Program-made: the position numbers and the translations under genes
DNA from: Escherichia coli 042
Lineage (GTDB): Bacteria; Pseudomonadota; Gammaproteobacteria; Enterobacterales; Enterobacteriaceae
Length of the DNA: 64,000 nucleotides
Assembly: GCF_000027125.1 (NCBI RefSeq)
Contig: NC_017626.1
Direction: 5' to 3' (one strand)
Part shown: in pieces, positions 26,865 to 27,176 of the stretch
Position numbering within the stretch: position 1 is the first letter of the stretch
How the letters are laid out: the number at the start of each line of letters is the position of its first letter
Notes under the pieces: generated by a model
Seen by the model: the letters and a program-made list of their open reading frames with translations, nothing else
Database searches by the model: none
Told to the model about the DNA's origin: nothing

Positions 26865-27176
26865 TTACATGCAAAACGTCCCGTTTTGCATCTTTGTGCC
26901 TACGGCACACCATGCTCTTTCCCTGACAATTGCCGCAGCACGCTGACCATTATCGGCACTCAGATGTAGCAGTCCTTTTTTTCCCGGACCATCGGTGCGG
27001 GACATCACAGACGCCAGATATGCCAGCATCAGTGGGCCGGAGGCAGCCCCAACCTCACCGGTACAGGAAGTGAGCATCAGATGAGGGTAATCCGCCACTT
27101 TATGTTCCAGAGAACGCAGGACAGCCAGGACGCGGGCTTTCATGCTTTTGCCCTGAAAGGCATGGTCATTCCGCAT
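26865..27176 (-). CDS. hypothetical protein (103 aa), unknown function
   Basis: ORF between paralog C and the H-rpt copy 2 end; not recognised. Confidence 0.3.
   Translation of the reverse strand: MRNDHAFQGKSMKARVLAVLRSLEHKVADYPHLMLTSCTGEVGAASGPLMLAYLASVMSRTDGPGKKGLLHLSADNGQRAAAIVRERAWCAVGTKMQNGTFCM

Follow-up and report, generated by a model that had tools for sequence, protein, structure and literature searches.

The locus is an island of about 11.7 kb between nfrB and cusS of Escherichia coli 042, delimited by comparison with the annotated, identical chromosome of E. coli strain 118UI; all positions given below are those of the window, i.e. the whole 64-kb stretch of DNA that was analysed. 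Read along the minus strand, which carries all of the features of the first array, the island begins with a 3' fragment of a Tox-GHH2 nuclease toxin (30897..31196; 99 aa; Pfam Tox-GHH2, E=8.8e-8), followed by two intact immunity genes of 346 aa each, paralog A (29831-30871) and paralog B (28679-29719), whose products show 68-72% amino acid identity to Citrobacter imm346. These are succeeded by a 91-codon 5' fragment of a PAAR-like (DUF4150) Tox-GHH2 toxin (28354..28626; Pfam Tox-PAAR-like, E=1.5e-11) and by a third intact immunity gene, paralog C (27269..28279), which codes for a 336-aa protein with 79% amino acid identity to Citrobacter imm336. Beyond paralog C lie, in this order, a scrap of an immunity gene, a fragment of a thiolase-like gene, a putative ISAs1-end remnant, another immunity scrap and a copy of H-rpt/ISEc1 (copy 2) that itself contains an IS1; then follow a SUKH-3 immunity gene, a deaminase fragment, Rhs fragments and, last, ISEc1 copy 1.

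The C-terminal halves of paralogs A and B are near-identical (repeat 28607-28906/29759-30058, 98%), PGAP names both of them WD40/YVTN/BNR-like repeat proteins, and a comparison of paralog C with the PDB returned matches to a designed beta-propeller ('Cake') only. This array has a counterpart in Escherichia sp. 94.0001, on a contig of 8 kb (locus L014): the PAAR-like 5' fragment (28354..28626) is 98% identical to its positions 2785-3057, after which the homology jumps to position 4307, the body of the toxin being deleted from the window relative to that contig. Paralog C is 98.4% identical to its counterpart there at the nucleotide level, with 8 synonymous and 8 non-synonymous differences. The stretch 23776-24727, situated between H-rpt copies 1 and 2, comprises an Rhs-repeat fragment (23776-24045), the SUKH-3 immunity gene (24063-24524) and a 66-aa YwqJ-like deaminase tail (24527-24727); it is a second, unrelated orphan toxin/immunity remnant that is joined to the first array by ISEc1. 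The nfrB-proximal part (20237-22550) is very AT-rich (GC 0.25-0.36) and holds small hypothetical ORFs with no Pfam match, among them one of 178 aa at 20237-20773. An Rfam scan matched no families in the island.

Thus, the island has the make-up of an orphan array: three intact paralogs of 336-346 aa are accompanied by truncated toxins only, and the array stands between nfrB and cusS, away from any type VI secretion system (T6SS) core. Paralogs A, B and C are predicted to confer immunity to GHH2 toxins, as suggested by the position of their relatives downstream of toxins in Citrobacter (L002), Shigella flexneri (L013) and Escherichia sp. 94.0001 (L014), and by the published work on the immunity proteins PefE and Tsi7 (PMC5714391, PMC11872809).

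The 103-aa reading frame and its parent gene

Between paralog C and H-rpt/ISEc1 copy 2 (24702-26769), the minus strand has an open reading frame of 103 aa (the ORF; 26865..27176) that is chimeric and not a gene. The first-pass annotation had described it correctly in several respects: the ORF listing contains the frame from ATG to stop with the sequence quoted, it occupies the junction to which it was assigned, and its GC content is indeed raised (0.51-0.57 across 26800-27200, against 0.30-0.39 in 26500-26899 just downstream and 0.36-0.45 in paralog C). The same annotation held that the frame has no recognisable family, and this did not survive a search against profile models, in which the NCBIfam model NF004798 (PRK06147, 3-oxoacyl-ACP synthase) matched residues 15-87 of the ORF with E=1.6e-8. 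The match spans positions 272-344 of the 349 in the profile and scores 34.2 bits, which does not reach the curated cut-off of 342 bits; full-length relatives score 229-250 bits, hence also below this equivalog cut-off, yet they cover the whole profile. A Pfam scan of the ORF found no family and a PDB sequence search with it found no match, and the full-length Citrobacter protein gave no PDB matches other than marginal ones to ketosynthases (E=0.005 at best).

An exhaustive HMMER search of 1.8 billion representative sequences recovered 75 relatives of the ORF, about 50 of which are full-length proteins of 309-442 aa that match it only through their C-terminal ~75 residues; an example is the 343-aa protein P0016, residues 262-336 of which match with E=1.2e-24. 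A word-indexed protein search with the ORF found other fragments only, the full-length relatives being reached solely by the exhaustive search. The close matches are all truncated, being either copies of this fragment or other pieces of 48-143 aa whose ends differ, and we found no family of proteins of similar length that share the N- and C-terminus of the ORF, so that its identification as a complete, known small protein is not supported. The short relatives are heterogeneous: P0031 and P0079 begin no more than ~35 nt from the end of a contig and P0037 belongs to a gene split into two parts (207 + 115 aa), its cluster being intact, and the notion that all of them are orphan fragments was rejected for these three. 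At each of these three loci the 3' end of the thiolase gene adjoins a PAAR-like toxin. Another short relative, P0005 (85 aa), has a different 5' end and lies at a contig edge beside another IS.

The homology can be delimited precisely. Residues 17-87 of the ORF are 85% identical over 71 aa to residues 268-338 of a 348-aa protein encoded in a Citrobacter T6SS locus, and at the DNA level homology detected by blastn is limited to 26926-27128, with 75-79% identity to the Citrobacter and Shigella copies and about 98-99% to a thiolase fragment (fragment #1) of the Escherichia sp. contig. This thiolase-like segment (26926..27128, minus strand) constitutes codons 17-84 of the ORF and corresponds to residues 268-334 of an NF004798-type protein of ~348 aa; as homology is confined to it, the ORF carries one fifth of a thiolase-like gene. 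These alignments show codons 17-84 to be the C-terminal ~70 residues of a T6SS thiolase-like accessory protein. They are homologous, and in frame, to the PA0098-type proteins grouped in NF004798/IPR040771, including the region of the H...GE(V/I)GAA.GPL...H motif. The difference is one of completeness: the NF004798-type proteins are whole, at ~335-370 aa with both halves of the thiolase-like fold, whereas the ORF represents only ~20% of such a protein, lacks the first ~267 of 348 codons and with them the N-terminal half of the fold, and has foreign sequence at both termini. Descent from the family is nevertheless evident in the 85% amino acid identity to the Citrobacter protein, the ~98% nucleotide identity to the Escherichia sp. 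fragment and a dN/dS of ~0.045 between alleles.

These results bear directly on the view that the frame arose by chance in GC-richer DNA and lacks any coding ancestry. The six-frame listing contains many ORFs of 40-100 aa in this region and Pfam is silent, as that view would have it, but in-frame homology at E=1.6e-8 to NF004798 and 1.2e-24 to a 343-aa relative, with 85% identity over 71 residues, together with the dN/dS of ~0.045, leaves it almost no credibility. It is only as a unit that the frame is a chance concatenation, in-frame coding ancestry being restricted to codons 17-84.

The parent gene belongs to a well-defined neighborhood. In the intact order, as seen in Citrobacter (L002), Salmonella (L005) and another genome (L010), genes for VgrG, DUF6484, the DUF2169 chaperone and the thiolase-like protein are followed by those for a toxin with PAAR-like (DUF4150) and Tox-GHH2 domains, an immunity protein of ~340 aa, a HEAT protein and a thioredoxin. 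This gene order is that of the published 'DUF2169 synteny type A' (PMC11883445). The vgrG1b cluster of P. aeruginosa, PA0095-PA0101, contains PA0098 as its thiolase-like member and PA0099/PA0100 as the Tse7/Tsi7 pair (PMC7970981, PMC11872809), and the pef operon of Proteus mirabilis is of the same type, with PefD as a PAAR + Tox-GHH2 toxin and PefE as its immunity protein (PMC5714391). From gene order alone, the thiolase-like gene would occupy the pefC position of the latter operon. The NF004798-type relatives of the ORF likewise lie directly upstream of genes for PAAR-like Tox-GHH2 toxins, and 12-16 nt separate the stop of the thiolase gene from the start of a PAAR-like toxin in metagenomic contigs. 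In Citrobacter L002 the first toxin after the full-length thiolase-like gene is called from position 7525, and PAAR-like coding homology (83% to window 28480-28626) begins at 7326; the gene may be mis-called or frameshifted.

Set against this context, the ORF does not lie downstream of vgrG between DUF2169 and a DUF4150/PAAR-like toxin: in contrast to synteny type A, the window has no DUF2169, VgrG or DUF6484 gene upstream of the thiolase fragment and no toxin downstream of it, the place of the expected toxin being taken by IS-type DNA. In tblastn comparisons of the 64-kb window with all the Citrobacter cluster proteins, the thiolase was found at residues 268-338 only, and no homologs of VgrG, DUF6484, DUF2169, HEAT or thioredoxin were detected. 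The remainder of the gene, which according to the first-pass annotation might lie elsewhere in the genome, was found neither in the window nor in 5,426 complete E. coli genomes: a blastn search of the latter with the full Citrobacter gene returned only its nucleotides 802-1004, and these only in 153 genomes (2.8%), each of which has one copy of the fragment, with at least 99% identity.

Junctions of the frame and the neighboring insertion sequences

On its 5' side the thiolase homology ends at 27128/27129. Upstream of this point lies a ~55-bp immunity scrap (27150..27205, minus strand) derived from the ...HGGMTMPF... region of the A/B (346-aa) type, which has an exact 18-mer in common with paralog B (28931-28948); the ATG and about the first 8-16 codons of the ORF read this scrap out of frame. 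The ~130 bp beyond 27129 occur, within the complete-genome set, only in the 153 island-bearing E. coli, and also in the Escherichia sp. contig. Further upstream, 27208..27268 (minus strand) is the conserved 3' flank of paralog C and matches positions 15673-15733 of Salmonella L005. These positions lie downstream of an ORF of 264 aa that has no Pfam match and belongs to the toxin/immunity part of the Salmonella cluster.

The start of the frame is itself inconsistent. The ORF listing gives 103 aa; in the annotation of strain 118UI, PGAP has a 'hypothetical protein' of 92 aa start at an internal ATG (27143); and in another strain a difference of 1 nt in an A-run (homopolymer) upstream of the ORF extends the frame to 111 aa. 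Paralog C, an intact immunity gene on the same strand, ends 92 bp upstream, and the ORF could be co-transcribed with it; a promoter scan found no sigma-70-like site upstream of the ORF on the minus strand, and the promoter/terminator scan of that strand yielded nothing relevant.

On the 3' side, the ORF takes its stop and the 19 codons before it from an IS-end-like segment of about 112-113 bp (26814..26925, minus strand). Precisely where the thiolase homology stops, this segment presents an ISAs1/ISEc1-type terminal inverted repeat, CAGGGAAAGAGC (26914-26925), which agrees with the ISEc1 terminal repeat at 11 of 12 bases; four such sites occur in the window against 0.2 expected, the other three being true ISEc1 ends. 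The ORF thus reads ...GCAATTGT/CAGGGAAAGAGC... at the breakpoint, where the natural continuation, as preserved in Escherichia sp. fragment #1 (residues 214-348, with the natural thiolase stop), is ...GCAATTGT/ACAGTGGCAGG, and the cut falls 8 codons before the natural stop. By such comparisons both ends of the frame are chimeric, the 5' end being immunity-gene scrap and the 3' end IS-type DNA.

The ~113-bp segment is by no means peculiar to this locus. In ~2,700 other E. coli genomes (~2,856 of 5,426 in all) it recurs beside H-rpt copies, ~97% identical at RhsE (O157:H7 RhsE/ydcC; L003 6001-6116) and in a more diverged form at RhsB (L004 5001-5084), always ending in the same repeat and never exceeding ~116 bp. 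A perfect 10-bp hairpin, ATGCAAAACG...CGTTTTGCAT, lies within it. At three unrelated loci a complete H-rpt/ISEc1 of the same orientation has the segment beyond its left end, at a distance of 44-130 bp that is filled by differing DNA. The segment could be a solitary end left by an extinct relative of ISAs1 and attractive to ISEc1 insertions, or else an alternative outer end. The 12-bp repeat CAGGGAAAGA(T/G)C of H-rpt/ISEc1, the ISAs1-family element of E. coli Rhs elements, is thus also present at the 3' breakpoint of the ORF; unlike the complete ISEc1, 26814-26925 has the terminal repeat but neither a transposase, nor a second end, nor a target duplication, and apart from the repeat its subterminal sequence is unlike that of ISEc1. 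The 11/12 repeat, its position at the breakpoint and the recurrent H-rpt neighborhood lead us to infer that 26814-26925 is a putative IS end.

Downstream of the segment, 26770..26816 (minus strand) is a fourth immunity-paralog remnant, corresponding to residues 213-229 of the Citrobacter imm343 type (81% over 47 bp in blastn; 82% over 17 aa in tblastn, E=6e-5), and this remnant holds ISEc1 copy 2, which is inserted 96 bp past the ORF stop. Copy 2 (24702..26769, minus strand; 1291 bp, interrupted by IS1) was delimited by in-register comparison with H-rpt copy 1. The IS1 (25204-25971) is bounded by a 9-bp target duplication, TGGATTATT, and splits the transposase ORF into 24712-25176 and 26155-26625; strain 118UI lacks it and shows no other difference in the 631 bp that were compared.

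It had been suggested that the ORF is a fragment of a gene disrupted by this H-rpt insertion, an explanation that in its full form takes a gene once intact here to have been broken by copy 2, with its remainder across the element or elsewhere in the genome. The short distance of 96 bp from the copy 2 terminal repeat to the ORF and the ISAs1-type repeat at its 3' breakpoint speak in its favor. Yet the Escherichia sp. contig has the same 103-aa ORF with identical junctions and no ISEc1: window 28354 down to 26770 corresponds without gaps to contig positions 4307-5891 at 98.6% identity, the homology stops exactly at the terminal repeat of copy 2 (26769/26770), and the contig continues downstream of the ORF with a 130-codon 3' fragment of an imm343-type immunity gene followed by HEAT and thioredoxin genes. 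Therefore H-rpt copy 2 did not create the ORF. On the far side of the element, moreover, the gene is not continued: the DNA there is unrelated and holds the YwqJ-deaminase fragment, the SUKH-3 immunity gene and the Rhs remnant. The 80% that is lacking belongs to the 5' portion of the gene, at the end of the fragment that faces away from H-rpt, and no other piece of the gene was found in the window or in the 5,426 E. coli genomes. We regard this account as highly improbable. What stands of the suggestion is that the ORF contains a gene fragment and that an H-rpt-type (ISAs1-family) terminal repeat marks its 3' breakpoint (between 26925 and 26926); what falls is the role given to the insertion of copy 2, and with it H-rpt as the main cause of truncation, the loss of the first ~267 of 348 codons belonging to the history of the cassette array. 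The same comparison led us to reject 26770-26925 as an extension of copy 2, as the Escherichia sp. contig has this DNA without ISEc1, and it shows that 26814-26925 was at this locus before copy 2.

No target duplication flanks either ISEc1 copy 2 or the 26814-26925 segment. With its far side unrelated and no duplication present, copy 2 therefore marks a rearrangement boundary, namely that between the Tse7-type array remnant and the Rhs-type remnant. A comparison of window 26762-26773 with positions 5884-5900 of the Escherichia sp. contig gives the uninterrupted site as TTTGCTGT/GGGAAAGATGG, which resembles the element's own terminal repeat, CAGGGAAAGATC, and hints at a preference of ISEc1 for repeat-like target sequences.

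A further possibility is that the frame codes for a functional stand-alone mini-protein, for instance a C-terminal thiolase-like module that would serve the neighboring immunity genes as a chaperone or regulator. In its favor, 153 E. coli genomes and Escherichia sp. have the frame open, PGAP annotates it as a hypothetical protein, and it shares the strand of the upstream immunity gene. Against this, the 153 copies, being at least 99% identical, indicate recent common descent rather than maintenance; the start codon varies among strains; the N- and C-termini come from out-of-frame or non-coding scraps; only 20% of the thiolase fold is present, its N-terminal half missing; and the island has no toxin for such a module to serve. 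Furthermore, the ORF is set apart from the Escherichia sp. copy by three substitutions, every one of them non-synonymous (Q8R, M50I and A55T), a count too small to decide the matter statistically. The numbers are small, but everything points to neutrality and to relaxed constraint on the ORF since its truncation, and a functional mini-protein appears very unlikely.

Thiolase 3' pieces and a proposed mode of cassette turnover

Similar 3' pieces of the thiolase-like gene accompany displaced cassettes in other arrays. In Citrobacter, the full gene and first cassette are followed by a 143-aa 3' fragment before the second toxin and a 42-aa one before the third, with no IS called near these 3'-only fragments. 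In Shigella flexneri L013, imm336 is followed by a thiolase fragment (residues 159-340), the coding region of a full-length toxin, imm346 and ISEc1, and in Escherichia sp. the piece before such a cassette comprises residues 214-348. In all, thiolase fragments of 42, 68, 125, 143 and ~182 codons precede orphan cassettes in four genomes. Comparison of the Citrobacter fragment with the resident full gene over 201 nt revealed 13 synonymous and no non-synonymous differences. Between alleles of different genera the retained segment has the dN/dS of ~0.045 given above, at saturated dS, which suggests that the divergence arose in functional full-length genes; this allelic divergence would have accrued there before recombination and is not to be taken as evidence of selection on the fragments. 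Relative to Shigella, the thiolase fragment and the upstream immunity gene differ in identity (79% vs 90%).

Based on the architecture in these four genomes, we tentatively propose that the thiolase 3' pieces serve as recombination handles, such that new PAAR-like-toxin/immunity cassettes are taken up into synteny-type-A T6SS loci through crossover in the conserved 3' part of the thiolase-like gene, older ones being displaced downstream and each carrying a thiolase fragment. We hold this to be quite possible, if somewhat short of probable; a hint in its favor is the pattern of 13 synonymous and 0 non-synonymous differences, which is that expected if two functional alleles met by recombination. 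If so, the process would be analogous to the formation of orphan modules in the Rhs, CDI and T6SS systems, in which each displaced module keeps a piece of conserved upstream sequence, as it does here. The usual orphan modules keep the conserved core of the toxin gene itself, whereas the piece kept here is the 3' end of a separate accessory gene, which would act as the homology arm. The orphan pefE2 of P. mirabilis HI4320 adjoins transposase pseudogenes and an rhs fragment (PMC5714391), and the window likewise consists of immunity paralogs and truncated toxins intermixed with IS and Rhs fragments.

Together, these observations make it very probable that the ORF is debris without a function, a frame that happens to be open through four remnants lying side by side in what is left of an orphan T6SS cassette array. 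The sequence of events would have begun with displaced toxin/immunity cassettes each keeping a thiolase 3' piece of variable length before the toxin, this piece probably being the homology used when new cassettes recombine in. One such piece, by comparison with its uninterrupted counterpart, appears to have been cut 8 codons before the natural stop when an ISAs1-type element inserted; no more than ~112 bp of this element are left, its terminal repeat included. A later deletion would have taken the toxin along with the greater part of the element and two thirds of the immunity gene that came next, while the 5' side was apparently cut back to codon 268 and joined to an immunity-gene scrap. ISEc1 copy 2, to judge by its absence from the co-linear Escherichia sp. 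contig, probably arrived later and further downstream, in another immunity remnant, and IS1 then landed in it.

The ORF is accordingly a chimeric pseudogene remnant, and both its gene family and the kind of orphan array that surrounds it are already known; the idea of a recombination handle is the only mildly new point. If the handle model is true, the frame would be a fossil of cassette turnover. It also serves as a datable marker for an order of events that runs from array decay through ISAs1-type insertion and deletion to ISEc1 and then IS1. The ORF would be better annotated as a pseudogene fragment of a T6SS thiolase-like accessory gene than as a hypothetical protein. In itself it is of little consequence, the modest practical interest lying in the surrounding island, which carries three intact immunity genes and no intact toxin and therefore at most confers immunity, the ORF adding nothing to it. 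We propose it as a candidate 'immunity-only' defence against the T6SS of competitors: ~3% of complete E. coli genomes (153/5,426) carry three predicted immunity genes of the Tse7/PefD type between nfrB and cusS.
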